From contig JAZROV010000002.1 of the NCBI GenBank assembly GCA_045648885.1, positions 94,628 to 158,627 of the forward strand: a stretch of DNA of 64,000 nucleotides. Direction: 5' to 3'. The notes beneath the pieces were generated by a model. The model had not been told where the DNA came from. It did no database searches and saw only the letters and a list, made by a program, of their open reading frames with translations. The translations under genes were made by a program, and so were the position numbers. Positions 1 through 40,451 of the stretch are shown here, piece by piece (position 1 is the first letter of the stretch; each line of letters opens with the position of its first letter). The stretch is from Candidatus Enterousia sp. GTDB lineage: Bacteria; Pseudomonadota; Alphaproteobacteria; Rs-D84.

Positions 1-40
1 ATATCATAATAAAACGAAATCAACAGCGTTTTTAAAAGAA

Positions 41-2365: not shown

Positions 2366-5300
2366 AAGAGAATAAAATGAAAAAACAATTAAACATATTG
2401 ATTGATGGACGCACTTTAAAATGGGGCTTATCTAAGGGTACGCGTAACGGTATTTTTTTCGTAACAAAAAATGTTTTTCAAGAATTAACGCAAAGAAACA
2501 ATGTAAACATACACATGTTTTTACCATGTGAAGATGCAAATTTATCAGATCAATTGATTAGTTTAATAGGTGCAAAATCTATGTCTGTTGTGACAGATCG
2601 AGATGATATGTCATCAATAGATGCATTTTTATCGCCATTGGAAAAAATACCGGATTGTGTGAAACAATATCCAAATATTTCGAATTATACAATATTATAT
2701 GATGTGACTCCGTTGATTTTTCCAATGTATTTTAAATCTGGGTCTACAGGTTGGTTTGAACAATTGGTGGCTTCATTAAATTTACAAGATTTCTATTTTT
2801 CAATTTCTGATTATACTAAATCTGATTTTTTAAGGTATTGTCCAAATTTAGATAGTGATAAAATTACAACAATACCTTTGTCGACAAATTTACCATATAA
2901 ACCAAATACAAAAGCAAAACAATTAGCGGCTGTGTGCAAAAAATATAATATACCAACCGACAAAAAATATCTTTTTTCCCTTTGTTCGCTGGAACCACGT
3001 AAAAATTTAATTCGTGCTGTAAAAACATTTTTGGATTTTATAAAAAAAAATAAAATCAATGATTTGGTTTATGTCTTGGGCGGTGGTGCGTGGAGCGGTT
3101 TTGTTGAAAAATTAGAAAAGGAAGTTCCAGATTATCAAAAATATTCTGATAAAATTATTCGTGCAGGCTATGTTGATGATGCTGATTTGGAAATTTTATA
3201 TTCCAACGCGTTGTGGTTTGTTTATACTTCGCAATACGAAGGTTTCGGTATGCCGCCATTAGAGGCAATGTCTTGCGGATGTCCTGTGATTACATCAAAT
3301 AATACCAGTTTGCCAGAAGTTGTTGGTGGGGCGGGTCAAATGATAGATTGGGACAGTGACGAACAACATGTTGCATCGTATGAAAAATATTATTTTGATG
3401 AAAAATATCGTAAATCAATGGCGAAAAAAGGGTTGGCACGTTCTAAAAAATTTTCATGGAAATCTGCCGTTGATATTATTTTAAATAAAATGAATGAAAT
3501 TGAAAAACGCAAATCAAACAAACCATTGGTGACTGTGGTCACAGGCTCTTTTAACCTGATTAAAAACGGTCGGCAGGAAACGTTTGCGCAAACAATAGAA
3601 TCTGTTCAAAAACAGACATATAAAAATATTGAACATATTGTGATTGACGGGGCTTCGACCGATGGCACAATCGATTTGTTAAAAGAATATGAAAAAAAAG
3701 GCCTTATTAAATACTATTCTGAACCAGACAAGGGTATTTATGATGCTATGAACAAAGGTATTTTAAAGGCCAAAGGAAAATATGTAGTTTGTTTGAACAG
3801 TGATGATTTTTATTCTGATGAACATGCGATTGAATGGTTAGTGAAAAAAGCAGAAGAACAAAATGCAGATGCTGTTTATGCTGATGCTGTGCGTGTTAAC
3901 CCAAAAACTTTGGCGGTTATAAATGTATGGCCAGGAAAAGGAAATTTCCAACCATGGAAACCGCAATTCCCGTGTCATCAAACATTTTTAATTAAAACAG
4001 ACGTAATGAAAGAATTAGGATTGTATAAATTAAAATACAAAGTGTGTGCGGATAATGCTTTTTTTTGTCGTTTGGAACAACATAATAAAAAAATTGCCGT
4101 GTTGGATAGAAAAATTATAACTTTTCGCGATGGTGGTTTTTCAAATGATAATATGGCTGTTGTAGAACAAGATAAAAAAGAGCTTTTGTTTGAAGAGTTG
4201 GGGCAATATCATAATTTAACAAAAGACGATTGTTCAAATTTGATTTTAAACAGATTTTGTTCTTTGCCTATTGATGATGCTATTAAATTAGGTGCTAAAC
4301 TTGAAAAATCAGAATGGGTTAAACAATATTTTAATATTTTATCTGATTATCATTTGCGCAATATACGTGTTCCAGATAAAACAGAAATAAATTGTGTTTT
4401 TAATTTATTTGATGTTTTTCGGTTATTTAAATATGAACAAACCAAAGATTTCGTGCGTTTAAAAATATTTGGTATCACAGTGTTTAAAATCAGAAAAACA
4501 TTATATTTTCAAAAATATTATTTGTTTGGGTTGCCTATTTTTAAAATAAATAATTTAACCCAGAAAAGAAATATACTGCAAAATATAATGTTTAAATTTG
4601 CAAATAAACAAAAAATATTCAAAAGAAATAAATTTTTATTGGTTGATAATACATTTAATAATACTGCCGAATTGACCGATAGTTTTGCTTTGTTTGAATA
4701 TTTACAGGCACATCCAAAATATAAAGATAAAAGTTATTATATTATAAACAAATTAAACGCACAATTTGACGAGATTGCAAAAAAATATCCGAACAATATT
4801 ATTCCGGTTGAACATGGTCGTTTAAATTGGTGTTTGCTTTGGAAAATGGTACGTGCAAAATATTGGATTGATTCATTCCAGGTTATTGGTTCTTTTGATC
4901 CAGATGGCGAGATTTGTAATGGACAAATCACAACTGTTTATGCACAACATGGTATCAATTATCTTAAACTGGGTTTTTTGGGTGATATGTCAATCAGTCC
5001 AAAATATTTTAATAAAATAATTTTCAGCAATGAAACAGAACGCGATTTATTCAAAAACTATTATGGCTATGACGATAAAAATACAATTATTGCGGGCTTG
5101 TCTCGTTGGGATTTAATGAAAGAGAAATCTGAAGAAAAAATAATTTTTGTGTTCTTTACTTTCCGAGATTATTTAAGAAAATTATCGGGAGATGCGATTG
5201 CTAAGACACGGTATTATGAAAATGTTTGCAGATTGTTAAATTCAAAAAAATTAAATGATTTGCTGAAAAAACATAACGTAAAATTATATGCAGCAGTTCA

Positions 5301-6189
5301 TCACGAAATGATAAATAATAAAACAATAAAAAATACTTTGTCGCATATCAATTTTATCGCAGATAAAGATATTGGTGAAATCAAACAAAAAGCGTCTATG
5401 TTGATTACTGATTTTTCCAGCATGTGTTTCGATTTTATGATAAAAGATAAACCTGTTGTTTTCTTCCACATAGATGCAGGTGATGAACTTTGTAAATTAT
5501 CGCCAGATAGTTATGAAAATGATTTAAATGTCGAATCTAAAAATGACGAACTTTATAATGTCTTTTACGATGTTGATGGTGTTTTAAATTCGATTGAATA
5601 TTATTTAAAACATAATTTTGAATTGGAAAAAGATAAAAAAGATAAACATTCAAAATTTTTCGCATATCAGCAAGATATTCGTCAACATATTATTGATGGT
5701 TTATTAAAATCGCCAGATAATATCTATAATGATGTTTTTCAATATGATTTATCTGATTTACCAGCGCTGCAATATGATACACAAATTATTTTCAATAATG
5801 ATATGCCTATGCATGTATATGGTTTAGCTGGCGCTGAACCATGGGGATGTTGGAGTGTTGATAAAAAATGCGCGATGGCTTTTAAATTACCAAATGAAAG
5901 TGAGGTTGTTTTGAAATTTGATTGTTCTGGATATGTCAATGATTTGCATCGAAATTTAATTGTAGATGTGTTTACTAATAATAAACGAAAAACACAATGG
6001 AAATTCAGATATGGCAAAACATTTAATGCACCAGAAATTAAAATTACTAAGCAAGATTGTGACGACAATAATATATGCAAAATCTATTTCGTTGTACGTA
6101 ATGCTAAATCTCCATATAAACTTGGCATCAGTAATGATAAGCGTTCTTTGGGAATCGGATTTAAGTCTTTGATAATTCATAAGTGTTAA
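2362..6189 (+). CDS. multidomain glycopolymer synthase: GT4 + GT2 + TagF-like CDP-glycerol/ribitol phosphotransferase + conserved C-terminal module
   Basis: 1275-aa ORF whose start overlaps the upstream stop by 4 nt (ATGA). GT4 motif EGFGMPPLEAMSCGCPVITSN. GT2 region VTGSFNLIKNGRQETFAQTIESVQKQTYKNIEHIVIDGASTDGT with DxD at CLNSDDF. TagB/TagF-like region ending ITDFSSMCFDFMIKDKPVVFF. C-terminal module PWGCW ... SPYKLGISNDKRSLGIGFKSL. Confidence 0.6.
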   Translation: MKENKMKKQLNILIDGRTLKWGLSKGTRNGIFFVTKNVFQELTQRNNVNIHMFLPCEDANLSDQLISLIGAKSMSVVTDRDDMSSIDAFLSPLEKIPDCVKQYPNISNYTILYDVTPLIFPMYFKSGSTGWFEQLVASLNLQDFYFSISDYTKSDFLRYCPNLDSDKITTIPLSTNLPYKPNTKAKQLAAVCKKYNIPTDKKYLFSLCSLEPRKNLIRAVKTFLDFIKKNKINDLVYVLGGGAWSGFVEKLEKEVPDYQKYSDKIIRAGYVDDADLEILYSNALWFVYTSQYEGFGMPPLEAMSCGCPVITSNNTSLPEVVGGAGQMIDWDSDEQHVASYEKYYFDEKYRKSMAKKGLARSKKFSWKSAVDIILNKMNEIEKRKSNKPLVTVVTGSFNLIKNGRQETFAQTIESVQKQTYKNIEHIVIDGASTDGTIDLLKEYEKKGLIKYYSEPDKGIYDAMNKGILKAKGKYVVCLNSDDFYSDEHAIEWLVKKAEEQNADAVYADAVRVNPKTLAVINVWPGKGNFQPWKPQFPCHQTFLIKTDVMKELGLYKLKYKVCADNAFFCRLEQHNKKIAVLDRKIITFRDGGFSNDNMAVVEQDKKELLFEELGQYHNLTKDDCSNLILNRFCSLPIDDAIKLGAKLEKSEWVKQYFNILSDYHLRNIRVPDKTEINCVFNLFDVFRLFKYEQTKDFVRLKIFGITVFKIRKTLYFQKYYLFGLPIFKINNLTQKRNILQNIMFKFANKQKIFKRNKFLLVDNTFNNTAELTDSFALFEYLQAHPKYKDKSYYIINKLNAQFDEIAKKYPNNIIPVEHGRLNWCLLWKMVRAKYWIDSFQVIGSFDPDGEICNGQITTVYAQHGINYLKLGFLGDMSISPKYFNKIIFSNETERDLFKNYYGYDDKNTIIAGLSRWDLMKEKSEEKIIFVFFTFRDYLRKLSGDAIAKTRYYENVCRLLNSKKLNDLLKKHNVKLYAAVHHEMINNKTIKNTLSHINFIADKDIGEIKQKASMLITDFSSMCFDFMIKDKPVVFFHIDAGDELCKLSPDSYENDLNVESKNDELYNVFYDVDGVLNSIEYYLKHNFELEKDKKDKHSKFFAYQQDIRQHIIDGLLKSPDNIYNDVFQYDLSDLPALQYDTQIIFNNDMPMHVYGLAGAEPWGCWSVDKKCAMAFKLPNESEVVLKFDCSGYVNDLHRNLIVDVFTNNKRKTQWKFRYGKTFNAPEIKITKQDCDDNNICKIYFVVRNAKSPYKLGISNDKRSLGIGFKSLIIHKC

Positions 6190-6210
6190 TAAAAAGGCAG
6201 TGGTGAAATC

Positions 6211-7176
6211 ATGAAAAAACAAACAAACAATTTAAGTAAAAAAACTGAGCATGTTGAAAATGTTCTGTATTTAGCGAATCAGAACGAAATTGAAAAGTTT
6301 TTTTCTGAATATGGTCAATATCATGGGCTTAGTCGGTATGATATCAACAGATTGGTTAACAATAATTTTCTTGGAATTCCATTAAATGAAGCTATTGAGT
6401 TGGGTGCAAAATTGGAACGGCCAGAATGGAAACAAGAATATTTTGATATTTTATTAAATAATCATATCTATTCAAAAAAACAAAATTTTTCAGTTATTGG
6501 TAATAGTATGCCTTTTGTGAAAAAATATTATTTGTTTGATTTATTGCTGTTGATGAAAACGAAGTTGAAATATGGTATTAAACGTTATTTGTTATTTGGC
6601 TTTTTGCCTTTGATTCGTATCAGGTATCAAGACAATAAATTAAAAGATATTTTATTGTTGTCTGTGATACCGTTTTTTTCCAATACATATGATAGTATTC
6701 GTTTGTTCGGTATACCGGTGTTTTTTAAACAAAAACTGAACGAAACTTATATTCCGATTAAACCGGGCTTTTACAGCACTGCTAGGATGTTAAAGTTTGT
6801 CTTGAAAGGGATGTTTGCTTGTGAAGCATGGGGTGCGTGGTCGCGTGGTGATTCGACATCTTTTTTATTAAAAACCGATGATAAATATATTGCAGAATTT
6901 GATGTGAAACCTTTTTGGGCCAAAGGTAAAGAAAAACAAATCGTGACAGTTTATCTGAATGGTCACAGAAAAAATAAATATGTTTTTGAAGCAGGACAAA
7001 AAATTCCAAAAATCAGTCTTGTTTTGCCTAAATCAGAAAGATTGCACATAATGTTTAAATATACAGATGTAAAATCACCAAAGGATTTAGGGTTATCTGC
7101 AGATGGACGCAAAATCACGATAGGGTTTAAATCGTTAGAAGTAAAAAATATCATGGACGAGAAACATAAATGTTAA
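6211..7176 (+). CDS. paralogous accessory protein sharing a linker region and the C-terminal module with the upstream polymerase
   Basis: 321 aa. The N-terminal segment (GQYHGLSRYDINRLV...AIELGAKLERPEWKQEYFDIL) aligns with residues about 620-690 of the 1275-aa protein. The C-terminus EAWGAWS...SPKDLGLSADGRKITIGFKSLEV is the conserved module. It carries LLFGFLPLIRIRY and IRLFGIPVFFKQK repeats. Confidence 0.5.
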   Translation: MKKQTNNLSKKTEHVENVLYLANQNEIEKFFSEYGQYHGLSRYDINRLVNNNFLGIPLNEAIELGAKLERPEWKQEYFDILLNNHIYSKKQNFSVIGNSMPFVKKYYLFDLLLLMKTKLKYGIKRYLLFGFLPLIRIRYQDNKLKDILLLSVIPFFSNTYDSIRLFGIPVFFKQKLNETYIPIKPGFYSTARMLKFVLKGMFACEAWGAWSRGDSTSFLLKTDDKYIAEFDVKPFWAKGKEKQIVTVYLNGHRKNKYVFEAGQKIPKISLVLPKSERLHIMFKYTDVKSPKDLGLSADGRKITIGFKSLEVKNIMDEKHKC

Positions 7177-8807
7177 AAAAACAAGAAACGCCATATTGTA
7201 AAAAATATTTTTTATTTGGAAAATGTATTTGGCAACACCGAAAGCCAATTAAAGAAATAGCAGAATATTTATTATCTGTGGTTTCAGATTCAATAAAATC
7301 TGAAATTGATAAATCAAATGCGGCTTTGCGGATGCTGTCTGATGCGATAGATAAAAAATTTTCAATTTTGAATGAATCTGATATTAAAAATGCAAATCAA
7401 ATTGATAAAATAAATTCAAATTTAAAAAAATATACTTTGAATACGCAAACGGATAATTTAAACCGCGCTGTTCAATTGTTGTCTGAAACTGTTGATGCAC
7501 GCTTTGATGTTTTGCAATCTGATGTTAAAGATTATATTAAAAATATATATGAAAAAGTCAGATATTTTAAAATATGCGACAATAAATTATTAATTGATGG
7601 TTTATACAACATAGAAGATTGGGGTGGATGGATAAATGAAACATGTAATATCTATTTGCGGTTTGATAAAAGTATAAAAAATGACGTTGATATTCAAATT
7701 GATATTTCTAGATTTAATACCAAATCAGAACAAGATCTAATTGTATTTATCAATGATGAGTTTTATCAAAAATTTGTAAATGTGTCTGGAAAGATTTTGG
7801 TACAAATACCATATCAAGATTTGATAAAACATGATTATAAAATTATTTTATCTTTTGTTGCCCCAAACCAAATTTCACCATTTGAATTAGGTGTTGGTAA
7901 TGATACTAGAAAATTAAGTTATGGTATTATCAGTATTGAATCAAATGCAGATGTCATATTGTCTGGGTTTGATTCAAAAAGTTTTTATGATTTCAATAAA
8001 TACACAACTTGTTTTATGCAAAATGAATGGTTGCAGTATATCTCAGAAGATTTAAATAATAACAAATTGCAAAATTTATATTGTGGTTTATCCAAAGACA
8101 GTGTTGATATATTGAATCTTTTAATGTATCGCAGACAAAATGAATATAAATTTTCTGGAATGGAATTATATCAAAAACATTTAGCGTGGACTAATGATGT
8201 TTCAAAATATAAAATTGTGAACAAAATTGGTTTTCAACCAGAAGTGTTCTTTTTCAAAAATGGTTTAAAATTTATTGACGATAAAATTATAGAAAGACAT
8301 TTATCAAATGGATGTATCATAGACGGTGGTGCCTGTAGTGGTGATTCTGCGTTGATGTTCGCTGAATATGATTTTGTTAAAAAAATTTATGCGTTTGAAC
8401 CAGTTAAAAATACATTTGCCGATATGGCAGAAACATTGACAATAAATAATTGTTCAAAAGCCGAAGCAATAAATGAGGGTTTGGGCGATAAAAACGGAAT
8501 TACAGAAATTATGGGTGAAAAATGTAAAGTCACAACATTGGATAATTTTGCAAAAAATAAAACTATATCATGTATAAAGTTAGACGTAGAAGGTATGGAA
8601 TATAAAGTAATTCAAGGGGCCTTAGAAACAATTAAACGTGATAAACCGTTGTTGTTGATTTGTATATATCATACACCAAAAGATTTTTTTGAAATAAAAC
8701 CGCTTATTGAATCTTTAAATTTAGGTTATAAATTCAAAGTTGTTGATACAGAACCGTGTAATTATGCGGTTGGTATTCATGCAATGTTGATTGGGTATAC
8801 GGAGTAA
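7170..8807 (+). CDS. coiled-coil / conserved-module / FkbM-family methyltransferase fusion protein
   Basis: 545 aa. The central DWGGWI...SPFELGVGNDTRKLSYGIISIES is the conserved module. The C-terminus IIDGGACSGDSALMFAEY...AFEP matches the FkbM/SAM-dependent methyltransferase signature. Start overlaps the previous stop. Confidence 0.55.
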   Translation: MLKKQETPYCKKYFLFGKCIWQHRKPIKEIAEYLLSVVSDSIKSEIDKSNAALRMLSDAIDKKFSILNESDIKNANQIDKINSNLKKYTLNTQTDNLNRAVQLLSETVDARFDVLQSDVKDYIKNIYEKVRYFKICDNKLLIDGLYNIEDWGGWINETCNIYLRFDKSIKNDVDIQIDISRFNTKSEQDLIVFINDEFYQKFVNVSGKILVQIPYQDLIKHDYKIILSFVAPNQISPFELGVGNDTRKLSYGIISIESNADVILSGFDSKSFYDFNKYTTCFMQNEWLQYISEDLNNNKLQNLYCGLSKDSVDILNLLMYRRQNEYKFSGMELYQKHLAWTNDVSKYKIVNKIGFQPEVFFFKNGLKFIDDKIIERHLSNGCIIDGGACSGDSALMFAEYDFVKKIYAFEPVKNTFADMAETLTINNCSKAEAINEGLGDKNGITEIMGEKCKVTTLDNFAKNKTISCIKLDVEGMEYKVIQGALETIKRDKPLLLICIYHTPKDFFEIKPLIESLNLGYKFKVVDTEPCNYAVGIHAMLIGYTE

Positions 8808-9063
8808 AAAATGGCAAAAAAACGAATATGTGTTATCGAAAGATGATAATCAAAAATATATTATTAAAAATATAGAAAAAGAATTTTTGAATGATTGGGT
8901 TACACCAATATTGCCGAGTGTCGAAAAAAAGTTAAAACTAGAAATAACAGATAGTTGGTACAATACAAAATATACAATTGATTTTATAAAAGCGACATAT
9001 GCTTATTATGACAAACATCCAGAATTGGTAAGTTTAAATAAACACATTGTTGATAATATTTAA
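8791..9063 (+). CDS. hypothetical small protein
   Basis: 90-aa ORF overlapping the end of the upstream gene by 17 nt. No recognisable motif. Confidence 0.2.
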   Translation: MGIRSKKWQKNEYVLSKDDNQKYIIKNIEKEFLNDWVTPILPSVEKKLKLEITDSWYNTKYTIDFIKATYAYYDKHPELVSLNKHIVDNI

Positions 9064-9068
9064 AAATT

Positions 9069-9100
9069 TTGTTTATTTTTTAACCAATTTGTGATATAAT
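9069..9100 (+). promoter_or_regulatory. candidate sigma70 promoter with extended -10 (TGaTATAAT) upstream of the tail-fibre-like gene
   Basis: tgtgatataat at 9090-9100, followed by a strong Shine-Dalgarno AAGGAG 7 nt before the ATG at 9188. Confidence 0.35.
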
Positions 9101-9187
9101 ACCAAACATAGGCGGTGATTTGTATCATCGCTGTTTTTTTGTGCCTGGTTTTTTATCAGGCGTTTTTTTATTATTTAAGGAGAAATA

Positions 9188-10378
9188 ATGTCTAGACAAA
9201 TACAAATCCGGCGCGGCAGTGCCGCTGAACACGATAATTTTACCGGTGCAATTGGCGAAATTACTATGGATACAACAAACAAAACTCTGCGTGTACATGA
9301 TGGGGTTACGGTTGGGGGTAATGAAATTATGTCAATGGATAAATTTTATTCAAATATAACGAATTGTATTACATGTATTCCACAAGATATAAATTTAAAA
9401 TTATCTGATGGGACATTGACTTTAAAGGCTGGTAGTAAATGTTATCTGAAAACAGACACAACTACACCAAGTATTGCTGTTTCATCTGATTTAACAACTA
9501 CACAAACAACGAATGGTAGTTATTTTGTGTTTTATGATGGAACTGGTTTGACGACAGCTTTGACTAATACGTATGATTATTCTAGTTTGCCAGATACATA
9601 TTCATTGCCTTTGGCGATAGTGACTGTTTCAGGAAATACTATATCGTCCATTGATCAAATATTTAATGGTTTTGGGTTTATTGGTGCTAAGGTTTTTGTT
9701 TTACCTGGTGTCAAAGGGTTGGCTCCAAATGGAAAAAATTCAGATGGAACTTTGAAAAATACAACTATTTCTATATCATCTGTAAAAATATCAGATACAT
9801 ATAATTCAAAATATGTTATGAATTCAGACGGTATAGTTCCTGCCAGTTATACAACGTATGTTGAACAGGACACCAAACCAAGTTTTTCTAATGGTGATTG
9901 GTATAATCCAGACGAAAATATTATGTATCAAATAGTCAATGGGGTTGCCATACCAAAGGTTAGATTATACGCGTTCGATGTTTTTGCAGCTGGCAGTGGT
10001 GTTCAACCGGCTATAGGAATAAAACTAAAACAAACATTTCATTCGTTAAGTTATGGTGACAAAGGTGTTGTTGCAGGTTGGAGTATGCCATCAGGTAAAA
10101 AAATATCTTTGACATTAGGGGCGTCGGATTCAACATACAAAGCACCAGCAAATGGTTGGTTTTATTTAGAAGCAATTGTTCCAACTAATGGGTATGCAGT
10201 TCGACTTGTTGCAACAGATGGGACTGCAAAGAAATCCCAAGTTCGTTCTGGTGCAAATAACCAATATTGTATTGTTCCATTATATCCCACATATGCTGGT
10301 GAAATAGTTCAGGTTCACTATGATGGAACTTTATCAAGCGTATCATTTTTATTTATTTATGCGCAAGGCGAAAAATAG
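9188..10378 (+). CDS. phage tail-fibre-like protein (conserved tail-fibre N-terminal motif)
   Basis: N-terminus IQIRRGSAAEHDNFTGAIGEITMDTTNKTLRVHDGVTVGG matches the RRGxAAxW...GEIGxETDTxKxKIGDGVT motif shared by phage tail fibre and hyaluronidase-type proteins. The remainder is Thr/Ser/Gly-rich and beta-rich. Confidence 0.5.
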   Translation: MSRQIQIRRGSAAEHDNFTGAIGEITMDTTNKTLRVHDGVTVGGNEIMSMDKFYSNITNCITCIPQDINLKLSDGTLTLKAGSKCYLKTDTTTPSIAVSSDLTTTQTTNGSYFVFYDGTGLTTALTNTYDYSSLPDTYSLPLAIVTVSGNTISSIDQIFNGFGFIGAKVFVLPGVKGLAPNGKNSDGTLKNTTISISSVKISDTYNSKYVMNSDGIVPASYTTYVEQDTKPSFSNGDWYNPDENIMYQIVNGVAIPKVRLYAFDVFAAGSGVQPAIGIKLKQTFHSLSYGDKGVVAGWSMPSGKKISLTLGASDSTYKAPANGWFYLEAIVPTNGYAVRLVATDGTAKKSQVRSGANNQYCIVPLYPTYAGEIVQVHYDGTLSSVSFLFIYAQGEK

Positions 10379-10387
10379 GAGAATAGA

Positions 10388-10735
10388 ATGTTTAAAGCAA
10401 TAAAAGATAATAAAATTATAGCAATCAGCGATACCGATTCAGAGTTTTTATGTATTGTGAAAGATACTGTGGAAGCAGATGATACCTGTGTTTGTGAAGA
10501 TTTTGGGCAATATAATGGTGAATATTTATTAAAATCCAAAATCCCAATTCCGACAAAAGAAGAACAAAGAGAAAAACGTGCGATGGCATATCGTGATGAA
10601 ATAGATCCAATAACTGCGCATATATCTCGGCTGCGTGATGAAGAACAATCAGAAGAAATTATTTCGGAAATATCAGATTTAATTTTAGAACGCGCACAAA
10701 AGGTTGCAGAAATAAAACAAACCTATCCGTATTAA
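10388..10735 (+). CDS. hypothetical acidic protein, possible tail-fibre assembly chaperone
   Basis: 115-aa ORF 10 nt downstream of the tail-fibre-like gene. The call rests on position only; a rho-independent terminator follows. Confidence 0.25.
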   Translation: MFKAIKDNKIIAISDTDSEFLCIVKDTVEADDTCVCEDFGQYNGEYLLKSKIPIPTKEEQREKRAMAYRDEIDPITAHISRLRDEEQSEEIISEISDLILERAQKVAEIKQTYPY

Positions 10736-10743
10736 AAATTTTT

Positions 10744-10776
10744 AACTGCATACGTTTGGCGTATGCAGTTTTTTTA
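10744..10776 (+). terminator. rho-independent terminator
   Basis: ctgcatacgtttggcgtatgcag hairpin followed by a T-run. Confidence 0.6.
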
Positions 10777-10832
10777 TATAAATCTTGATTGTATACATTT
10801 ATTTTTGTATGCTAAATCTAAAGTTATAATTA

Positions 10833-11903
10833 TTGGATAATGTAATTATGAAAAAAAAGTTATTATTTCTTGTTTTGGGGTTCATATTCGTTTTGACGAT
10901 ACTGTTATTTTTTGTGTTTGTCGAAACAAAACAAGCTGGTCCAGAAGATTTAATCATATATTTTAATAAAAATGGGAATATATCTGAATATAAAACAACA
11001 GGTTTTTCACATCCGGAAACAGACAGAACGTGGACCGATGGGCGAACAGCATCTATTGTTGTTCCATATAATAAAGTTCAAGATTATTTTGTGCGTGCCA
11101 CGTTTGATATCAACCCATTTTTGACTAAGAAAATAAAAAAACAAACTGTTAATGTTTTGGTAAACGATAAATTTGTAACAAAGTGGAATATTAGTAAGGC
11201 CGGAACTTATGCATTTGATTTGCCTGTTGATTTTGAAACAGATGATAATAAGATGACTATTAAATTTGAAATTCCTGATGCAAAAAGCCCTAAAGAATTA
11301 AAACTATCGTCTGATGCCCGTAAATTAGGCTTGGGAATGAAAAGATTAGTTTTATCGCAAGTTAGTCAAGAAAATCCGAATAATTACAAACATTATCATA
11401 TTGGCGACAGAATATATTTTAATGCTGGTGGAAATTCCAAACTTTATACTGGCACTGGTTGGTCATCGCAAGAAAAAGATTTTACTTGGACCGATGGAAA
11501 TGATGCTTATTTGAATTTATTTATAGAAGATGCGTTGGATAAAAAATTACAACTGAATATTTTTGGATACGGAATTTTTGAACAATCAGATGAATGTCAA
11601 AAGGTAACAGTATATGCAAATAATTCAGAATTAACAACATGGTGTTTGTCATGCCAAGACGATAATTATGCGGTTGAAATACCAGAAACAGTAATTGGTT
11701 ATGGAGCGGTTCAAATTAGATTACATATAGAAAAACCATTCGTTGCAAAACCAGATCCCAGACATTTAGGAGCGGCTGTGAAAAATGTTTATATTTCACA
11801 AGTGTTTGCAGCAAAAACAAAAGTTAAAATAGCGCGTTGGATAAAAAATAAAGTTTTGAAATCGTCTGATGCTAAGCCATCGCCCGATGCACCGATTGAA
11901 TGA
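10833..11903 (+). CDS. membrane-anchored protein with two tandem copies of the conserved C-terminal module
   Basis: N-terminal TM helix LLFLVLGFIFVLTILLFFVFV. Copy 1 is TDRTWTDGRTAS...SPKELKLSSDARKLGLGMKRLVLSQV. Copy 2 is KDFTWTDGNDAY...DPRHLGAAVKNVYISQV. Confidence 0.5.
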   Translation: MDNVIMKKKLLFLVLGFIFVLTILLFFVFVETKQAGPEDLIIYFNKNGNISEYKTTGFSHPETDRTWTDGRTASIVVPYNKVQDYFVRATFDINPFLTKKIKKQTVNVLVNDKFVTKWNISKAGTYAFDLPVDFETDDNKMTIKFEIPDAKSPKELKLSSDARKLGLGMKRLVLSQVSQENPNNYKHYHIGDRIYFNAGGNSKLYTGTGWSSQEKDFTWTDGNDAYLNLFIEDALDKKLQLNIFGYGIFEQSDECQKVTVYANNSELTTWCLSCQDDNYAVEIPETVIGYGAVQIRLHIEKPFVAKPDPRHLGAAVKNVYISQVFAAKTKVKIARWIKNKVLKSSDAKPSPDAPIE

Positions 11904-12126
11904 ATTTTGGACAAATCAATTTGACAATTTATTAATAAAATGTAATATTATTCTTAAGCGGCAGGTGTTCTGTCGTTTGGGTATCACTAACCCTTGTGTA
12001 CAGAAGTCAGCGATGACTGAAAAAATCTCCAACATTGGTTGGAGTGTGCGAATATATTGAATAAGCACAACAAATTCTGTACTTTGTTAGTGAACTCCAA
12101 CCACCAGGTATTTTTATGGTGGTTTT

Positions 12127-12668: not shown

Positions 12669-12745
<77 letters not shown>

Positions 12746-15485: not shown

Positions 15486-15800
15486 ATGAAAAAAATAATG
15501 TTTATTTGTTTTGGTGTTTTGTTGGCGTCTTGTGCACAATCAACAAAAGAAGGCACGGGTTTAATAAGGGTAAACCAAGAACCAACAAATTGTGAATTTT
15601 TGTATGCTATTAAATCTGATTTTTCGGGGTATTCTGAACAAGACGCGTTCGATTTTGTGGAAAAAAGAATCGTGGAAGAAAACGGTTTTGGGGATACTTA
15701 TTACATCGAAAAACAAGATATTGCTGAAAATATCGGGGCGATATTTGGGCCAAAACATACCTATAAAATAAAAGCAAAAGTTTATAACTGTAAAAAATAA
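15486..15800 (+). CDS. small lipoprotein
   Basis: Signal peptide with lipobox LLASC. Confidence 0.4.
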   Translation: MKKIMFICFGVLLASCAQSTKEGTGLIRVNQEPTNCEFLYAIKSDFSGYSEQDAFDFVEKRIVEENGFGDTYYIEKQDIAENIGAIFGPKHTYKIKAKVYNCKK

Positions 15801-15892: not shown

Positions 15893-17140
15893 TTGATGAA
15901 ACAAGTCATAACCGTTCGTCGCAGAAAATATGCAACAGGTCTTTTTTGGCAGCCTGTAAATCCGGGCGTGACACCGTATCTTTATGCGCGACAATTGGTC
16001 GCAAAAAGCGATAAAAAATATACTCTGTTGACCGAATATAAATCGATGATCGGGTTGGCAGAATCGCGCGACGGTGTTCGGTCGGGAATGAATACTGCTG
16101 CGGCAGAGGTTATGAACGCATTTCCTGAATTTTCATCATTTTTGGGTGTTTTTCGTGTAGATAATCGGTTTTATCTGGTTGCGGTGCGTAATGGTGTTAT
16201 TATTCGTGATGTTTTGGTGGAAAAAGAAAGCGATGCCCGAAAATTATACGCTGAATTATCAAATATGCCAGATTGGGGGGCGTTGTTTGCCCCGTCAAGT
16301 TGGGGTATGCCTCGTTCCCAGGAAAAATTTTTGCAAGATATTGTGAAAAATGAATCTGTGGCACGGTTGCGTCAAATCAGTATTGTAAAATCTGTCGCGC
16401 CGTCAATTGTTTTGTTTTTAATTTTATTGGGTGTTGGTTTGTATTTTCTTTATTCTCCGTTGTTTAAATCTATGTCTGCGCCAAAAAGCACAGGGTTGAA
16501 TCCTGAATTGATGGCCGAATATCAAAAGCAATTGGAAGCGAAAAACCAAGAATTAGACAAAGAGTTTGAGATTGTAAAATCTGCATTGGTTTATCCATAT
16601 GATAATTTGCCCGATGTCATGGAACGGGCGCGGCTTTGTTATAAAGCAACCGGGTTTGTGATGCAGCCTGTGATGGGTTGGGACCAGAAAAATACAATGT
16701 GTGACGAAGAACATGTATCTGTGGTCTTTACGCGTGATTTTGGAACATTAAATGATTTTTATTTGGTTGGTGGTGATGTTATGCCGGGCGGTATAGTGCA
16801 CCAGGTATCTGATAATGAAATTCGTGTGCGTGCAAAATTGCCGGCATTAAAAACACATTCTTCGGTTGATGAACGTGACCAAGAAACGGCTATGCGTGAC
16901 ATAGTTTCTGTTTTTCAACAGGTAAATATGAAAGCGGGTATCAGGGCATCAAATGAAATTATTCGTAATAATAAAGAAAAAGCAACTGTGAATTTTATAG
17001 AAGTCAGCGCGAGTTCTAAATTAGTGCCGTCTGAATTTATGCAGATATTTAATGATTTTGATGGTGTTTATATGAAATCTGTTGGGTGGGATGCAAGAGA
17101 TAGAATCTGGAATTACAACGTTGTTATTTATACAAAATAA
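15893..17140 (+). CDS. bitopic inner-membrane assembly protein (GspL/PilO-like) of a T2SS/T4P-family apparatus
   Basis: 415 aa with an ~160-aa cytoplasmic domain, a single TM (SIVLFLILLGVGLYFLY) and a periplasmic domain. It lies directly upstream of the PilP-like, ATPase and platform genes. Confidence 0.35.
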   Translation: MMKQVITVRRRKYATGLFWQPVNPGVTPYLYARQLVAKSDKKYTLLTEYKSMIGLAESRDGVRSGMNTAAAEVMNAFPEFSSFLGVFRVDNRFYLVAVRNGVIIRDVLVEKESDARKLYAELSNMPDWGALFAPSSWGMPRSQEKFLQDIVKNESVARLRQISIVKSVAPSIVLFLILLGVGLYFLYSPLFKSMSAPKSTGLNPELMAEYQKQLEAKNQELDKEFEIVKSALVYPYDNLPDVMERARLCYKATGFVMQPVMGWDQKNTMCDEEHVSVVFTRDFGTLNDFYLVGGDVMPGGIVHQVSDNEIRVRAKLPALKTHSSVDERDQETAMRDIVSVFQQVNMKAGIRASNEIIRNNKEKATVNFIEVSASSKLVPSEFMQIFNDFDGVYMKSVGWDARDRIWNYNVVIYTK

Positions 17141-17152
17141 AAAGGTGAAAAA

Positions 17153-17824
17153 ATGTTAAAGAAAATCTGTTTTTATTTGTGCTTTGGTGTATTTTGTGTG
17201 TGCGTTGGTGTCAATGCGTATGCAGAAGAATTCGAAGAAGTTTTTATTGAAGAAAGAAGTCCAGATGAAATTTCTGCCCAGGCGTTGGAAGATTACCAGG
17301 TAGAAGGTTCTTTGTTTGAACGTATTACAAATCTGGAACAAGAAAAATTAGTTATGCAATTGGAAAAAGACCGTATCGAATTAGATTTGGCGTTGGACAG
17401 ATTGAACAAAGAAAAAATCAAAATCCAACAAGAATTAGAAGATATGTCTGGGCGTGCAGACCGTCAACAGCAAGAATTAGAATTGGCCAAGGCTCAATTG
17501 GAAGAACAAACCATGGAATTGAAACGCAAAATGGAAGCGTTGGATAACAGGGTAGAAGAAGCACCTGTACAAAGAGAAACGCCAAAAAGACAAGAAGAGC
17601 CAGTCGATACATCTGTGCAGATTGTTGGTAAATATAAATTATTAAATGTTGTTGGTGTTGGTAATCAATTACAGGCTACAATTCAAGATATTGCAACGGG
17701 TCAAAATAAACGCATAGCAGTTGGTAAGCAATTAGATGGATATACTGTCAAATCTATTTCGTTAAACGACGGAATTGTGTTTGAAAAAGATGGTGTTTCA
17801 GAAAATTTGAATGTTGGAAAATAA
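17153..17824 (+). CDS. PilP/GspC-HR-like periplasmic coiled-coil protein
   Basis: Signal peptide, a long coiled coil, and a C-terminal beta-domain VGKQLDGYTVKSISLNDGIVFEKDGVSENLNV. Confidence 0.35.
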   Translation: MLKKICFYLCFGVFCVCVGVNAYAEEFEEVFIEERSPDEISAQALEDYQVEGSLFERITNLEQEKLVMQLEKDRIELDLALDRLNKEKIKIQQELEDMSGRADRQQQELELAKAQLEEQTMELKRKMEALDNRVEEAPVQRETPKRQEEPVDTSVQIVGKYKLLNVVGVGNQLQATIQDIATGQNKRIAVGKQLDGYTVKSISLNDGIVFEKDGVSENLNVGK

Positions 17825-17827
17825 AAT

Positions 17828-19456
17828 ATGGCGAACGAAGATAATTCTTTTGTAGAAATGTCAAATAAACCGTCTGTGCCAGCCGGGTTGGAGAACGCGG
17901 GCAGTAAAGACATTTTGGAATATTTGTTTTCAAATGATAATAAATTGCTGACGGCGACATCTGCGGAATATGCTTTGTCAAAAGACACCCAAGGATTGGT
18001 TGCGTATTTTTCTGGTGGTGAAATAATTATATCCAGAACACATCGATATGATGGTCGCGTGTTGGCTTTCTTAGATTTATTGCATCGTAATAATATTGTA
18101 ACAAAACAGCCGTTTTATTCTGATTTGGCGTTGTTGTCAAATATTTATAAAACAAATGATCAACGTATTGGCGAAGCAGATGCATCACGTTTTGATTATG
18201 AAAACCAGATGCAGAAAGATTTTGTTGATATTATCGCGCGTGCGGCCGCTCAAAAGGTGTCTGATATTCACGTTGAAGTTGCAGACCAGACAACAATTTA
18301 TTTCCGTATTGATGGAAGTATGCAACCGGTTTTGGAATATAATTCTCAATGGGGGGAATCTTTTGTTCGTGCGGCATTTGCGTCTGCGGATATATCTAAT
18401 TCTTCGTATGCACAAAATGAATACCAGGCTGCCCAGAAAGACGGTCGAACCCCATTGCGTGGTACGCGTGATTTGTATTTGCCGTCGGCTGTGTTGGGGG
18501 TTCGTATGCAATTTAACCCGATTGCGTTCGGCAGTCAATATTTGGTTATGCGTTTGCTTTATGATAACCCCAGCGAAGGTATCAAAACCGAACAGGAATT
18601 TAATGATTATGAACAAAAATTATTGATGCGTTTGCGTTCGGCGCCAACAGGTTTGGTTGTGGTTGCAGGGCCTACATCTTCGGGTAAATCGACAACGCTG
18701 GTGCATAATATGGCGTTGATGTTGAAAGAACACAGATACGAAATCAATTTGATTACCGTGGAAGATCCGGCAGAACAGAAAATTTTCGGCGCGCATCAAA
18801 TGCCTGTGGTGAACGCGTCTAATGAAGAACAACGTGATGCGAAATTTACAGAAGCGTTGGCAGCGGCATTGCGAAGCGACCCTGATACAATGATGGTCGG
18901 TGAGGTTCGTACTTTGTCTGCGGCGCAATTGACGGTCAAAGGCGCGTTGTCTGGGCATAATGTGTGGACAACGTTGCATGCGAACTCTGCAATGGGTGCG
19001 TTGACGCGTTTGTTGGATATGGGGGTAGAAGCGTTTAAATTAAAAGACGAAACCATGATGCGTGGATTGGTTTCAATGCGTTTGTTTAAAAAACTTTGTC
19101 CGTATTGTCGTGAACGTTTGATTGATAAACCTGATTTGCCGGTGTATCAACGTATGAAAGAAGCGTTCGGTGATTTGGGACTGCAACAGGCGTTTGTTCG
19201 TGGCGCAGGTTGTGAAAATTGCAAGGGCGCAGGAACAATCGGGCGTATCAAAGCAGGCGAAATCATTTTAACAAACAGTGAATTTTTAAGTTTCGCACTG
19301 GCCGGTGAAACTGAAGCGGCTTTGCGCTATTGGCTTGAAAAATTAGACGGCAGAACATTGAAAGAAGCCGCCATAGAATTGATGTTAAAAGGTATCATCG
19401 GCGTGGACGAAGTAGAACGTTGGGTTGGATTGTTGGACAGACCGTGGGTATATTAA
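17828..19456 (+). CDS. type II secretion / type IV pilus assembly ATPase (GspE/PilB family)
   Basis: Walker A AGPTSSGKSTT, His box TTLHANSAMGAL, and a tetracysteine zinc motif CPYCRE...CENCKG. Confidence 0.8.
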   Translation: MANEDNSFVEMSNKPSVPAGLENAGSKDILEYLFSNDNKLLTATSAEYALSKDTQGLVAYFSGGEIIISRTHRYDGRVLAFLDLLHRNNIVTKQPFYSDLALLSNIYKTNDQRIGEADASRFDYENQMQKDFVDIIARAAAQKVSDIHVEVADQTTIYFRIDGSMQPVLEYNSQWGESFVRAAFASADISNSSYAQNEYQAAQKDGRTPLRGTRDLYLPSAVLGVRMQFNPIAFGSQYLVMRLLYDNPSEGIKTEQEFNDYEQKLLMRLRSAPTGLVVVAGPTSSGKSTTLVHNMALMLKEHRYEINLITVEDPAEQKIFGAHQMPVVNASNEEQRDAKFTEALAAALRSDPDTMMVGEVRTLSAAQLTVKGALSGHNVWTTLHANSAMGALTRLLDMGVEAFKLKDETMMRGLVSMRLFKKLCPYCRERLIDKPDLPVYQRMKEAFGDLGLQQAFVRGAGCENCKGAGTIGRIKAGEIILTNSEFLSFALAGETEAALRYWLEKLDGRTLKEAAIELMLKGIIGVDEVERWVGLLDRPWVY

Positions 19457-20531
19457 TATGACAAAATTAGATTATTGGTGGGCAAAATTTAGTTTCAGAT
19501 TTGATACGCAAAAGCGTATGGCGGTCAGTAATAAAATCGCGTCATTGTTACGGAATGATTTTACTTTGATGGATGCGTTGCATCGTATTGAAATGATTGA
19601 ATCTCAAAATGGTAAAAAACCAGATGAAGCCTTTGCCATAGCTATGCGTGAAATCCAAAAAAATATGGAACAGGGGATGAGTTTTTCTGAGGCTACGCGT
19701 GGGTGGGTACCCCCAGATGAAACGTTATTATTGATGTCTGGAAATATGTCCAGTTTGGTTATATCTTTGGAAAATGTTTCGCGCGTTGTCAACGGGGTCA
19801 GTCGCATTAAACGTGCCATGACATCTGCGCTGGCATATCCGTTATTTCTGTTGGTGTTGACAATCGGTATTATTGTTATGGTCGGTGTTTATTTGGTGCC
19901 ACCATTGACAGAGGCAGCAGGCAGCAACATTGTTTGGCACGGGTCTGCACGATCTTTGATTTGGGCGTCTGATTTTTCAAATAAATATCTTTATCCTTTT
20001 TCCATAGGTTTGGGGGTTGCGATTCTTTTGATATGGATATCGCTTGCAAATTGGACTGGTAAATTGCGGACTGTGTTTGATAATTATCCGCCGTGGAATA
20101 TATATAAACTGCAAATATCGGTCAGTTGGATGATGTCTTTGGCTGCTATGGTTTCTGCGGACGTTTCTGTCCCAGATGCAATGCGGTTGTTGGCTGATAA
20201 TTCAAATCGGTATTTGGCGAATATTTTAAATGAAGCGCTGCATTATATTTCAAACGGTGATAATTTAGGAACTGCATTGGCCCAGACTGGTAAAAAATTC
20301 CCCAGTGAAGAAATCATAGGTGATTTGACGATTTATTCTGATATGAATGATTTTGATAAAAATATTAATAAAATCGCTAATGATTATATGGAAAATGCAG
20401 TGCGTCGTATGGAATCTTTGTCCAGTGCTATGAATGCAGCGGGGATGGCGTTGGTATCCGTTGTTATGGGTTGGGTCGTGTTGGGAACTTTTGCAATGCA
20501 AGAGCAAATTACGGCCGTATTGACAACCTAG
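19425..20531 (+). CDS. GspF/PilC-like inner-membrane platform protein
   Basis: 368 aa with three predicted TM helices at GspF-like positions, located immediately after the GspE-family ATPase. Confidence 0.5.
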   Translation: MDCWTDRGYINMTKLDYWWAKFSFRFDTQKRMAVSNKIASLLRNDFTLMDALHRIEMIESQNGKKPDEAFAIAMREIQKNMEQGMSFSEATRGWVPPDETLLLMSGNMSSLVISLENVSRVVNGVSRIKRAMTSALAYPLFLLVLTIGIIVMVGVYLVPPLTEAAGSNIVWHGSARSLIWASDFSNKYLYPFSIGLGVAILLIWISLANWTGKLRTVFDNYPPWNIYKLQISVSWMMSLAAMVSADVSVPDAMRLLADNSNRYLANILNEALHYISNGDNLGTALAQTGKKFPSEEIIGDLTIYSDMNDFDKNINKIANDYMENAVRRMESLSSAMNAAGMALVSVVMGWVVLGTFAMQEQITAVLTT

Positions 20532-20552
20532 GTGAAAAAAATACATATAAAA

Positions 20553-20590
20553 AAACAGGCATCGTTTTCGAGATGCCTGTTCTTTTTTAT
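20553..20590. terminator. bidirectional rho-independent terminator
   Basis: acaggcatcgttttcgagatgcctgt hairpin with flanking T/A runs between convergent genes. Confidence 0.6.
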
Positions 20591-21159
20591 TATGCCATGA
20601 AAGGCAGGTTTTCAATCGTGCCTTCGGTCACACGGACATTCACGTCAATCAACATAAATACAGAATCGTTGCTGATTGAACCACGGTGTTTTATTACGTC
20701 TGGTGCCAAAAGGTGGCTGGTGTTCACGGTCAATTTTGTGACCAAATGATCATCATCCAATAATGTATAAATAGGCCCAATATCACGTGGTGTATTTTGA
20801 CCAATTTCATGTTCGTTTTGTGGGCAACGCAGGCCGTCCAGAATTGTTTTAACGCGATTATCGATATCTGAATGTGGCATACCAACAATTTCAGGATGCA
20901 TCAACAAGATATCCAATTCTGCAATCATTTTCAAATTTGGTGTGATGATTGGATTCCAGTCTATGCCACCAATATGACGGGTTATGCTGGGGCTTTTGTC
21001 TGCATCAGGGTCCATAAATTTGGTTAAATGATTCCATGGTTTGAAATCAACCAGTCTTTTTAATTGTGGATGGAATTGCATGCGAATGTCTGCGATATGT
21101 TGGGCCCGTTTTTTTGGGTTTGTTAAAATATCGCCAAAATATAATAATTTGAATTTCAT
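20590..21159 (-). CDS. hypothetical protein
   Basis: 189-aa ORF with no recognised motif. Confidence 0.4.
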   Translation of the reverse strand: MKFKLLYFGDILTNPKKRAQHIADIRMQFHPQLKRLVDFKPWNHLTKFMDPDADKSPSITRHIGGIDWNPIITPNLKMIAELDILLMHPEIVGMPHSDIDNRVKTILDGLRCPQNEHEIGQNTPRDIGPIYTLLDDDHLVTKLTVNTSHLLAPDVIKHRGSISNDSVFMLIDVNVRVTEGTIENLPFMA

Positions 21160-28183: not shown

Positions 28184-28507
28184 TTATACTTCCCAAGATT
28201 TGGTTTGGTATGTATTGATCGTCCCATCAGCAGAAACAGATGTTTTCCATTTTGGATAATCGTCACATTTAGAACGATTATTTTCCCACTGTAATGGTAC
28301 CAAGTTGATAATATCATCTGTACCACCTTTTGATACCGGTTTTTGATGATCTATTTCCCAACCATATTGAGATTCACAATTACCGTATTCTGATTTTTTG
28401 ATCCAAGCACCAGCATAGTCTTTGCGCCAAACATCAGCTTGTTCAGTGTTTACTATCTTTGCTTTCTTCCAAACATCATCAACAGTTTTTTCTTCAAAAT
28501 ATGCCAT
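28184..28507 (-). CDS. HNH endonuclease
   Basis: WEIDHQKPVSKGGTDDIINLVPLQWENNRSK is an HNH motif. Confidence 0.55.
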   Translation of the reverse strand: MAYFEEKTVDDVWKKAKIVNTEQADVWRKDYAGAWIKKSEYGNCESQYGWEIDHQKPVSKGGTDDIINLVPLQWENNRSKCDDYPKWKTSVSADGTINTYQTKSWEV

Positions 28508-29498: not shown

Positions 29499-30134
29499 GT
29501 GTATGATTTTAATCAGTTAAAGGTTTTAATAATGAAAAAGATTGTCTATTATTTATTCATTTCAATTATCTTTTCATTGATGTTCACATTGGTAGATGTT
29601 TTAAATCGCCGGGTTGTAATAAATAATAAAACTGGCGTTGTCAGTGATTTGATAAATGGTGGATTAGGTCTGGGCAGTACAGGGTTAGGCAGTATAGGTT
29701 TTGGTGATTTTAATGTAAAACAAAATATGGATGCTAATTCGGTATGTACGGATGATAAACCTTTGTTGTTGACCAATGGTGAATGTGTTGCGTGCGATTA
29801 CATGTTGGATGAAAATACAGATGTTTTAATCGGATGTGAAAAATGTTCTGGGAATGCAAAATGTTTGTTGAAAATGGATGGTGAAGAAAAAAATAAAATT
29901 CAGCCGCGTATAAATAAACCGAGAATAGAAAGCAAACATAAATACAAATTGATAAAAATTACAGGTAGTGATGAAAATTTGCGCGGCGAAGTATTGGAAA
30001 CTCAGTCAGGACGTAAAAAATTCGTTTTTATTGGCGGTCTGGTTGATGGGGCGGTTGTAAAATCTGTTTCTGGAGACGGTAAAATCGTAGTTGAAAAAGA
30101 CGGCGAAAGCCAGAGTTTGGATATTGAAATGTAA
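29499..30134 (+). CDS. secreted/membrane-anchored protein with PilP-like C-terminal beta-domain
   Basis: N-terminal hydrophobic segment and a Cys-rich middle region. The C-terminus GGLVDGAVVKSVSGDGKIVVEKDGESQSLDI parallels the C-terminus of the 17153-17824 protein. The likely start is MKKIVYY at 29532. Confidence 0.4.
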   Translation: MYDFNQLKVLIMKKIVYYLFISIIFSLMFTLVDVLNRRVVINNKTGVVSDLINGGLGLGSTGLGSIGFGDFNVKQNMDANSVCTDDKPLLLTNGECVACDYMLDENTDVLIGCEKCSGNAKCLLKMDGEEKNKIQPRINKPRIESKHKYKLIKITGSDENLRGEVLETQSGRKKFVFIGGLVDGAVVKSVSGDGKIVVEKDGESQSLDIEM

Positions 30135-36732: not shown

Positions 36733-37137
36733 ATGAAAGAAAAAATTTATTATTTGAAAAATTTAGACGAAACACACGCGTGGGCGCGTGATTTTGCAAA
36801 AACACTGCATGCGCCGCAAACCGTGGCTTTGCACGGTGATTTGGGTATGGGAAAATCAGAGATTGCACGCGTTATAATTAAAACTTTGCGCGGGGAAGAT
36901 ACGGTTGTGCCATCGCCTACATTTACATTGGTGCAAAATTATGATGGTATTTCGCATTTTGATTTATACAGAATTGGCGATAAATCTGAATTGGAAGAAA
37001 TCGGTTTGAAATACGCAATTGATAATGATATTACTTTGATTGAATGGCCAGAAATAGCAATGGACATTTTACCGTCAAATACAATACATGTTTATATCAC
37101 ACAAGATGGTGATGGGCGTAAATTAATGCTTCAATAA
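36733..37137 (+). CDS. tsaE: tRNA threonylcarbamoyladenosine biosynthesis ATPase TsaE
   Basis: LHGDLGMGKSEIARVI P-loop. The start MKEKIYY at 36733 lies in the frame of the longer track ORF. Confidence 0.7.
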   Translation: MKEKIYYLKNLDETHAWARDFAKTLHAPQTVALHGDLGMGKSEIARVIIKTLRGEDTVVPSPTFTLVQNYDGISHFDLYRIGDKSELEEIGLKYAIDNDITLIEWPEIAMDILPSNTIHVYITQDGDGRKLMLQ

Positions 37138-40026: not shown

Positions 40027-40103
40027 GTTATTATATTATAATTTAATTGCGTTCGGGGGGCAATAGTTTTTATAATGTAAAAAACAAAGGCAGGGAATAT
40101 ACC

Positions 40104-40427
40104 ATGGCAATAAATATTCAAAACTATGTAAAACTGGCAAATTTCTATAATGAAATGACGCGCGTTTTGTCTGCAATTTGTGTAGAAAAAGGCGGAATTG
40201 CGCTGGAAAATTATGTTGGACGTTTTTTTGCTGCCGATTGTTTGGAATATATTGTTGAATATGGAAAAAGATTAAAAAAATCTGGTGCACAATTAACAAA
40301 AGAAACACTGGATGTGATGGATTTGTTCGAAAAAAGATTTGAAACGGTCAAAGATTTTGTCACGCCAAATCAAAAACCTGTTTATGAAATGACGCTTGAA
40401 GAATTTGAAAAAATCATGAATATTTAA
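40104..40427 (+). CDS. hypothetical protein
   Basis: ORF 40047-40427. The Met at 40104 has a better RBS context. Confidence 0.3.
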   Translation: MAINIQNYVKLANFYNEMTRVLSAICVEKGGIALENYVGRFFAADCLEYIVEYGKRLKKSGAQLTKETLDVMDLFEKRFETVKDFVTPNQKPVYEMTLEEFEKIMNI

Positions 40428-40451
40428 CACTGGCAAAGAAAGGAAAGAAAT

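Follow-up and report, generated by a model that had tools for sequence, protein, structure and literature searches.

The bfp operon of enteropathogenic Escherichia coli comprises 14 genes, including those for bundlin, the BfpP peptidase, the BfpB secretin and the BfpF retraction ATPase. In the clusters of the R64 thin pilus, PAPI-1 and Burkholderia Tfp7 (pilN2-O2-P2-Q2-R2-S2...), the core is immediately preceded by genes for TcpQ and a lipoprotein secretin of the PilN type (PMC3984277). Family PF06864 is the PilO2/BfpC family of this R64 thin-pilus variant, with an actin-like cytoplasmic domain, and the PAPI-1 and Tfp7 operons contain no prepilin peptidase in cis and borrow one (PMC3984277). 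Here, a four-gene operon at positions 15893-20531 was analyzed in a stretch of 64,000 nucleotides (the window) from contig JAZROV010000002.1 of Candidatus Enterousia sp., an uncultured rumen and gut alphaproteobacterium of the order Rs-D84. Judging from its protein families and gene order, the module is probably the inner-membrane and periplasmic core of the R64/PAPI-1 "PilO2" variant of the type IVb pilus, related also to Bfp of enteropathogenic E. coli.

Open reading frame (ORF) listing and translation showed that 15893-20531 is a single co-directional operon of four genes, with ORFs of 415, 223, 542 and 368 amino acids, as described in an earlier note made from the sequence alone and now borne out by the family matches. 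The intergenic spacings are 12, 3 and 1 nucleotides, taking the ATG at 19458 as the start of the platform gene. The operon consists of the following features.

15896-17140, plus strand: bitopic inner-membrane protein of the PilO2/BfpC family (PF06864; profile matches to BfpC and PilO2Bp)
17153-17824, plus strand: PilP-like periplasmic protein (TIGR03021 pilP_fam; same position as pilP in the annotated cluster)
17828-19456, plus strand: type IVb extension ATPase, BfpD/PilQ-like, with a tetracysteine site (PF00437; BfpD 8dze)
19458-20531, plus strand: polytopic platform protein of the PilR/BfpE/GspF family (PF00482, twice; TIGR02120)
20549-20586, both strands: bidirectional intrinsic terminator at the operon end (15-pair stem, T-runs on both strands)

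The pilO frame (15893-17140) encodes 415 amino acids from a TTG codon and 414 from the ATG at 15896, the length of the identical database protein P0001, and the ATG is probably the true start. The platform frame (19425-20531) encodes 368 amino acids from a TTG and 357 from the ATG at 19458, which is called on identical contigs and is the likely start. The pilP and ATPase frames (17153-17824 and 17828-19456) encode 223 and 542 amino acids, and the strong terminator stands between the operon and a convergent gene.

The ATPase matched PF00437 (T2SSE; E 1.6e-64) and keeps all its catalytic motifs intact, namely, Walker A (281-289), the Asp box (311-316), Walker B (351-361) and the His box (376-384). 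The complete GspE-type zinc finger named in the earlier note is present as a tetracysteine site, with CPYC at 424-427 and CENC at 462-465. In the PDB search its best solved relative was BfpD (8dze), aligned over the full length with E 2.4e-72 and 247 bits, compared to 155 bits for GspE and at most 146 bits for PilF/PilB. The platform protein has three transmembrane segments and matched PF00482 (T2SSF) in two stretches (E 1.4e-24) and TIGR02120 GspF (E 5e-17). Scores against the equivalog models of the type II secretion system (T2SS) were far below cut-off for both proteins (GspE, 215.8 bits versus 630; GspF, 62 versus 424).

The bitopic partner matched PF06864 PAP_PilO with E 9.8e-14 and 51 bits (cut-off 26.7), and its family profile matched the N-domains of BfpC (3vhj) and Burkholderia PilO2Bp (4bz0/4byz). 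It is predicted to have a cytoplasmic N-domain, a single transmembrane segment at about 159-192, a coiled coil and a periplasmic C-domain. In the AlphaFold2 model the periplasmic part forms two alpha-beta-beta modules with a predicted local distance difference test score (pLDDT) above 80; the N-domain was modelled with pLDDT below 50, and an actin-like fold was not confirmed. A Foldseek search of this model against the PDB gave non-significant LAGLIDADG, tRNA-synthetase and similar matches, which were not used as evidence. The homologues of this protein form 665 clusters, mostly unnamed, some of which are titled "type 4b pilus protein PilO2 [Alphaproteobacteria bacterium]". The PilP-like protein has a signal peptide, an acidic stretch, a long coiled coil and a C-terminal beta domain of about 65 residues.

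A tblastn search against plasmids led to annotated pilO2 genes, among them a Bordetella flabilis plasmid cluster with the order TcpQ-PilN-PilO2-PilP-ATPase-platform-pilin-A24 peptidase-PilT-PilV-PilM. By this order, the window module is exactly the central four genes of such a cluster in identical arrangement, so the synteny comparison with type IVb loci, like the PF06864, BfpC/PilO2Bp and BfpD matches, agrees with the pilO-pilP-pilQ-pilR core that the earlier note had proposed. The four families and their order are common to the module and to R64, PAPI-1 and Tfp7, with a sequence identity of only about 23-29%. In contrast to those clusters, the module has no secretin, TcpQ/PilL, pilin, PilV adhesin, PilM or peptidase in cis; it is core-chromosomal and vertically inherited across the whole order, whereas R64-type clusters lie on a plasmid, an integrative and conjugative element or an island; and its host genome is smaller than 1 Mb. 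With Bfp it shares the logic of bitopic protein, ATPase and platform, the ATPase aligning to BfpD and the PilO profile to BfpC, but no counterpart of bundlin, BfpP, BfpB or BfpF adjoins it.

The conservation of the module was followed in relatives found by a scan of one genome per GTDB species, which yielded 77 loci, nearly all from rumen, gut or faecal metagenome-assembled genomes labelled Candidatus Enterousia or Alphaproteobacteria. The pil operon is placed between lpxK-lpxC and gyrB, and the order DUF374-lpxK-lpxC-(104-amino-acid lipoprotein)-pilO-pilP-ATPase-platform...gyrB persists at 35-55% PilO identity. Because this neighbourhood is retained at such divergence, the module was taken to be core-chromosomal and vertically inherited. 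Completeness was counted in the 61 species-level loci with room for all four genes, a gene being full at 90% of its length or more. All four reached this length in 58 of the 61 loci; of the other three, one has an N-gap, one a shorter ATPase call and one an artefact of ORF picking. Across the Enterousia loci the median identity to the window protein was 82.5% for the ATPase, 68% for the platform protein, 52% for PilO and 53% for PilP, and, for the neighbours, 74% for LpxC, 70% for LpxK and 93% for GyrB. These medians, with the ATPase above the lipopolysaccharide enzymes LpxC and LpxK, indicate purifying selection and not decay, and as nearly all species of the lineage retain the four genes intact, the pilus machine is probably in use. 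An orphan 189-amino-acid protein without a family match is encoded on the minus strand at 20590-21159; its median identity is 84% in Enterousia and 70% in distant relatives, and its gene is always found beside gyrB and the pilus operon, on one side of gyrB or the other.

The history of the cluster could be followed in more distant relatives. In a termite-gut alphaproteobacterium (L077), genes for a TcpQ-domain protein, a PilN lipoprotein secretin, PilO, PilP, the ATPase and the platform protein are contiguous. TcpQ and PilN genes likewise precede the core in five other gut alphaproteobacteria (L079-L083); L079-L081 also encode a protein of about 640 amino acids upstream and a bundlin-like pilin downstream, and L079 and L081 additionally a pilin with a class-III signal and a PilT-like ATPase. 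In one Enterousia locus (L056) the PilN gene stands 9 kb upstream of pilO with housekeeping genes in between, and on contigs related to L056, from one Enterousia clade, an intact TcpQ-PilN pair lies beside the suf operon as a separate locus. As read from these gene orders, an ancestral TcpQ-PilN-PilO-PilP-ATPase-platform(-pilin) cluster was split, and the "dispersed" apparatus of the earlier note is therefore supported. For the window's own genome this part of the note is plausible, indirectly, through the relatives in which TcpQ-PilN adjoins the core or has a locus of its own.

Several side observations concern these PilN loci. The genes between PilN and pilO in L056 (positions 1-9900) include rpsT, plsY and a gene for a secreted 284-amino-acid protein, and one protein of the interval has a DprA-like N-terminus, judged by eye only. 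In L085, an Enterousia-like contig, the PilN frame has an in-frame TAG at codon 326 (positions 6470-6560), in a variable "GATHME-G" stretch, where the PilN fragments P0174 and P0177 are broken as well; either a genuine nonsense or phase-variable site or an assembly error that recurs could account for this. A frameshift in PilN of L084 was dismissed as an N-gap artefact. The weaker PilN matches P0148 and P0152 were not accepted as the PilN of the window's clade; they lie on contigs of 2-3 kb and are tied to no clade.

Several results weigh against assigning the module to a type IVb pilus with its other parts elsewhere. The PilP-like protein scored 32.6 bits (E 1.3e-7) against TIGR03021 pilP_fam, just below the cut-off of 34.65, and its alignment, searched as a profile against the PDB, gave nothing beyond coiled-coil noise and a GspC match that was not significant (E 0.8). 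The profile comparison of the 415- and 223-residue proteins with solved structures thus gave matches for the first, BfpC and PilO2Bp, and none of significance for the second, the position and architecture of which fit PilP. Two motif scans of all six frames found no class-III prepilin signal in the 64-kb window, the pilins of L079 and L081 being recovered as positive control, and the same scan found none in the flanks of the Enterousia loci either. Pfam models for Peptidase_A24, Secretin and TcpQ matched none of the scanned window ORFs (nearly all of at least 100 amino acids), and tblastn with PilN, TcpQ, PilS, A24, PilV and PilM from canonical clusters gave no match in the window, so that the lack of pilin, prepilin peptidase and secretin in cis, which the earlier note had pointed out, stands. 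Within 10 kb of the module no prepilin, A24, PilN or TcpQ was found in the Enterousia loci, except in L056. The PilN protein search returned 57 proteins only, each with 67% identity or more to the L056 clade, versus 665 for PilO; since the matches are confined to L056-like proteins, the window's clade may be without PilN. The presence of pilin, peptidase and PilN elsewhere in this genome is assumed. Lastly, type IV pili were reported in PMC12306168 only for a lineage other than Rs-D84.

The window contains one candidate for an outer-membrane partner and two further candidate accessory proteins.

40452-41777, plus strand: divergent secretin-superfamily lipoprotein of 441 amino acids, with N0, N1 and a partial secretin domain (remote homology)
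29499-30134, plus strand: second protein with a PilP-type C-terminal domain, candidate accessory part
15486-15800, plus strand: orphan lipoprotein of 104 amino acids directly 5' of pilO (lipobox LLASC)

The 441-amino-acid lipoprotein is 78-90% identical across Enterousia, more than most of its neighbours. It had no direct match to Pfam (PF00263), NCBIfam or PilN-type secretin hidden Markov models (HMMs), and an exhaustive phmmer search recovered only 112 clusters in 1.8 billion sequences, of which the 13 weakest are true PF00263 secretins (E 1e-7 to 1e-3). Aligned to PilN by hhalign, it gave 90.8% probability and E 1.2e-6 over residues 95-317, covering N0, N1 and the start of the secretin domain; the C-terminal 142 residues (300-441) did not align to the secretin barrel. 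Its AlphaFold2 model had an overall pLDDT of 45.9, with values above 80 for about residues 100-180, and in the Foldseek search of this low-confidence model almost all of the 20 best PDB matches were secretins (E 6e-4 to 1e-2). By remote homology the protein is a divergent secretin-superfamily lipoprotein and not a PilN orthologue. Because the direct HMM searches and the C-terminal hhalign comparison were negative, it was not filed as a bona fide secretin. Only 10 nucleotides separate the gene from the lolCE that follows it, a bona fide one at 411 bits (above cut-off), and lolD comes next; this arrangement persists at 43% identity (L086), and the lipoprotein gene was not linked to the pil module in any locus. 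The candidate lipoprotein secretin of the earlier note thus holds as a member of the superfamily, but not as the cognate PilN, with its C-terminal third unaligned and its place in the lolCE-lolD operon. It is a possible outer-membrane partner of the pilus core. The operon (40047-43764) begins with a gene for a small, cytoplasmic-looking protein of 126 amino acids, followed by the 441-amino-acid lipoprotein, lolCE and lolD, and the conserved 126-amino-acid protein is homologous to proteins of 376-406 amino acids in L086 and L087.

The protein encoded at 29499-30134 has an N-terminal transmembrane segment and a Cys-rich middle, and aligns with the PilP family. In BLASTP it was 37-46% identical to 74 PilP orthologues over the C-terminal domain, so that the second PilP-like protein listed in the earlier note is, on this alignment, a true paralogue of the PilP C-terminal beta domain. 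Upstream of it, a solitary 107-amino-acid ORF on the minus strand (28184-28507) contains an HNH-like motif (EIDHQKPVSKGG...NLVPLQWENN), and the stretch of 28.1-29.5 kb around it otherwise looks non-coding.

The 104-amino-acid lipoprotein occupies the same spot, the lpxC-pilO interval, in 60 Enterousia loci and in L070. It has two further invariant cysteines, is 88-94% identical within the L056 clade, and matched no Pfam or NCBIfam family. It could be a pilotin-like accessory of the machine or unrelated to it; its identification as a PilN remnant or a known pilotin was discarded, as it had neither family match nor similarity.

Two other kinds of machine were weighed against these data. The first is a type II-like secretion device, or a type IVb machine that mainly secretes, as the toxin-coregulated pilus exports TcpF, in which a short pseudopilus would expel substrates by way of a secretin, perhaps the 441-amino-acid lipoprotein. 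The resemblance to the T2SS lies in the common GspE/GspF superfamilies of ATPase and platform protein, the GspL-like bitopic protein and the GspC/PilP-like linker with its C-terminal beta domain; in addition, a highly conserved secretin-superfamily lipoprotein is encoded in the same genome, and no long-pilus pilin was seen nearby. However, the ATPase is much closer to BfpD than to GspE, and the bitopic partner belongs to PF06864 (PilO2/BfpC) and not to GspL. Pfam and NCBIfam searches of the window found no GspC, GspG-K, GspL or GspM family and no pseudopilin gene, the relatives possess TcpQ, PilN-type secretins and bundlin-like pilins, and the secretin-like gene shares its operon with lolCE-lolD and not with the pil module. 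A secretion device is therefore considered unlikely.

Similarly improbable is a repurposed type IVb motor, in which the 441-amino-acid lipoprotein, the second PilP-domain protein and the 104-amino-acid lipoprotein would replace PilN and TcpQ in a non-canonical envelope machine. The strong conservation of the 441-amino-acid protein fits this, as does its N0-N1-like N-terminal half, the kind of region to which PilP/GspC-type domains bind; the window holds two PilP-domain proteins, and the PilN matches of the protein search are limited to one clade. Against it, the 441-amino-acid gene is unlinked to the module in all loci, having the small cytoplasmic-looking protein and lolCE-lolD as neighbours, the C-terminal third has no detectable secretin barrel in a protein modelled with low confidence, and one member of the family may, on a weak comparison (L086 versus L083), occur in a lineage that also has a canonical PilN. 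In a bolder version, which we also hold improbable, most Rs-D84 would have lost PilN and TcpQ, and the motor would have joined with the 441-amino-acid lipoprotein, the second PilP-domain protein and, perhaps, filament subunits of a non-canonical kind in a new organelle that spans the envelope, the main means of attachment to other cells or of DNA or nutrient uptake from them.

That the operon is a decaying, non-functional remnant of a once complete pilus cluster would account for the secretin, pilin and peptidase of the ancestral cluster not being in cis. It is very unlikely, as the four genes are full length in nearly all species, conservation of the ATPase exceeds that of LpxC and LpxK, the catalytic motifs are all intact, and Rs-D84 genomes are streamlined (0.67-1.6 Mb, 81-94% coding) with no build-up of pseudogenes (PMC12306168); the partial decay proposed in the earlier note did not survive the comparison of species. 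That the module belongs to the thin pilus of a conjugative plasmid or an integrative element, as it does in R64 and PAPI-1, is almost certainly wrong and was rejected on the conserved chromosomal synteny. In favor of it, the closest annotated clusters are plasmid-borne and adjoin Dot/Icm-type or Tra genes; against it stand lpxK-lpxC and gyrB as flanks down to 35% PilO identity, the absence of a relaxase, type IV secretion system or integrase nearby in family scans of the window proteins, and a module GC content not atypical for the window.

The reading that we favor, and hold to be probable from the family matches and conservation, is that the four genes form a functional type IVb assembly core, the remaining parts of which are encoded elsewhere. 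If the machine works as BfpC-BfpD-BfpE and PilO2-Q2-R2 do, its BfpD-like ATPase would, as a hexamer, bind both the polytopic platform and the actin-like cytoplasmic domain of the bitopic PilO2/BfpC-like protein, and would power the extraction of processed pilins from the membrane into the growing filament. The PilP-like protein would span the periplasm by its coiled coil, and its C-terminal beta domain would contact the N0 domain of an outer-membrane secretin. In Rs-D84 and Enterousia, the ancestral cluster would have been broken up and its O-P-Q-R core fixed between lpxC and gyrB, then passed on vertically under purifying selection; pilin, prepilin peptidase and secretin would have to be encoded elsewhere in the genome.

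Most biosynthesis is missing from Rs-D84, and an obligate life as symbionts or parasites of other cells has been predicted for them (PMC12306168). By analogy with reduced episymbionts that rely on type IV pili, the likely role of the machine in such partner-dependent bacteria is attachment to partner or host cells, DNA uptake, or both. In Saccharibacteria, which are ultrasmall episymbionts, type IV pili mediate host binding and motility (PMC9894109, PMC11623550). The likeness is one of setting only, a pilus machine kept in a reduced, partner-dependent genome (PMC9894109, PMC11623550); the phylum and the pilus class are different, and the Rs-D84 machine is known from its genes alone.

Other features of the window were recorded. 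Positions 1-12000 form a low-GC island (28-33%) that encodes a methyltransferase and large glycosyltransferases with several domains; tRNA-Met at 12669-12745 marks its boundary, and within it a 396-amino-acid protein (9188-10378) carries a Major-tropism-determinant N-terminal domain (PF18454). The region upstream of DUF374 differs between species, which suggests a hypervariable surface-glycan locus or one resembling a diversity-generating retroelement. On the minus strand at 37123-38907, a single ORF of 594 amino acids joins in frame an N-terminal FtsA and a ribulose-phosphate 3-epimerase (402-578), and the junction (...KKKTKPKKKFIPILPSTL...), with no stop codon and no Met, has the appearance of a gene fusion. 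Three tandem AMP-binding paralogues of 526 amino acids, similar to acyl/aryl-CoA ligases and 64-68% identical to each other, lie at 55880-60712, a triplication that is unusual for a genome of less than 1 Mb.

Rs-D84 and Candidatus Enterousia are widespread in rumen and gut and are predicted to depend on other cells. A type IVb motor kept in essentially every species is a concrete candidate for partner interaction or DNA uptake, and the ATPase, the PilO2-like protein and the conserved secretin-like lipoprotein offer handles for the study of partner interaction. The machine is of a known kind; its genomic and ecological setting is new and unreported: a type IVb cluster, normally mobile and contiguous, has here been split and is inherited vertically within the core of a streamlined genome.

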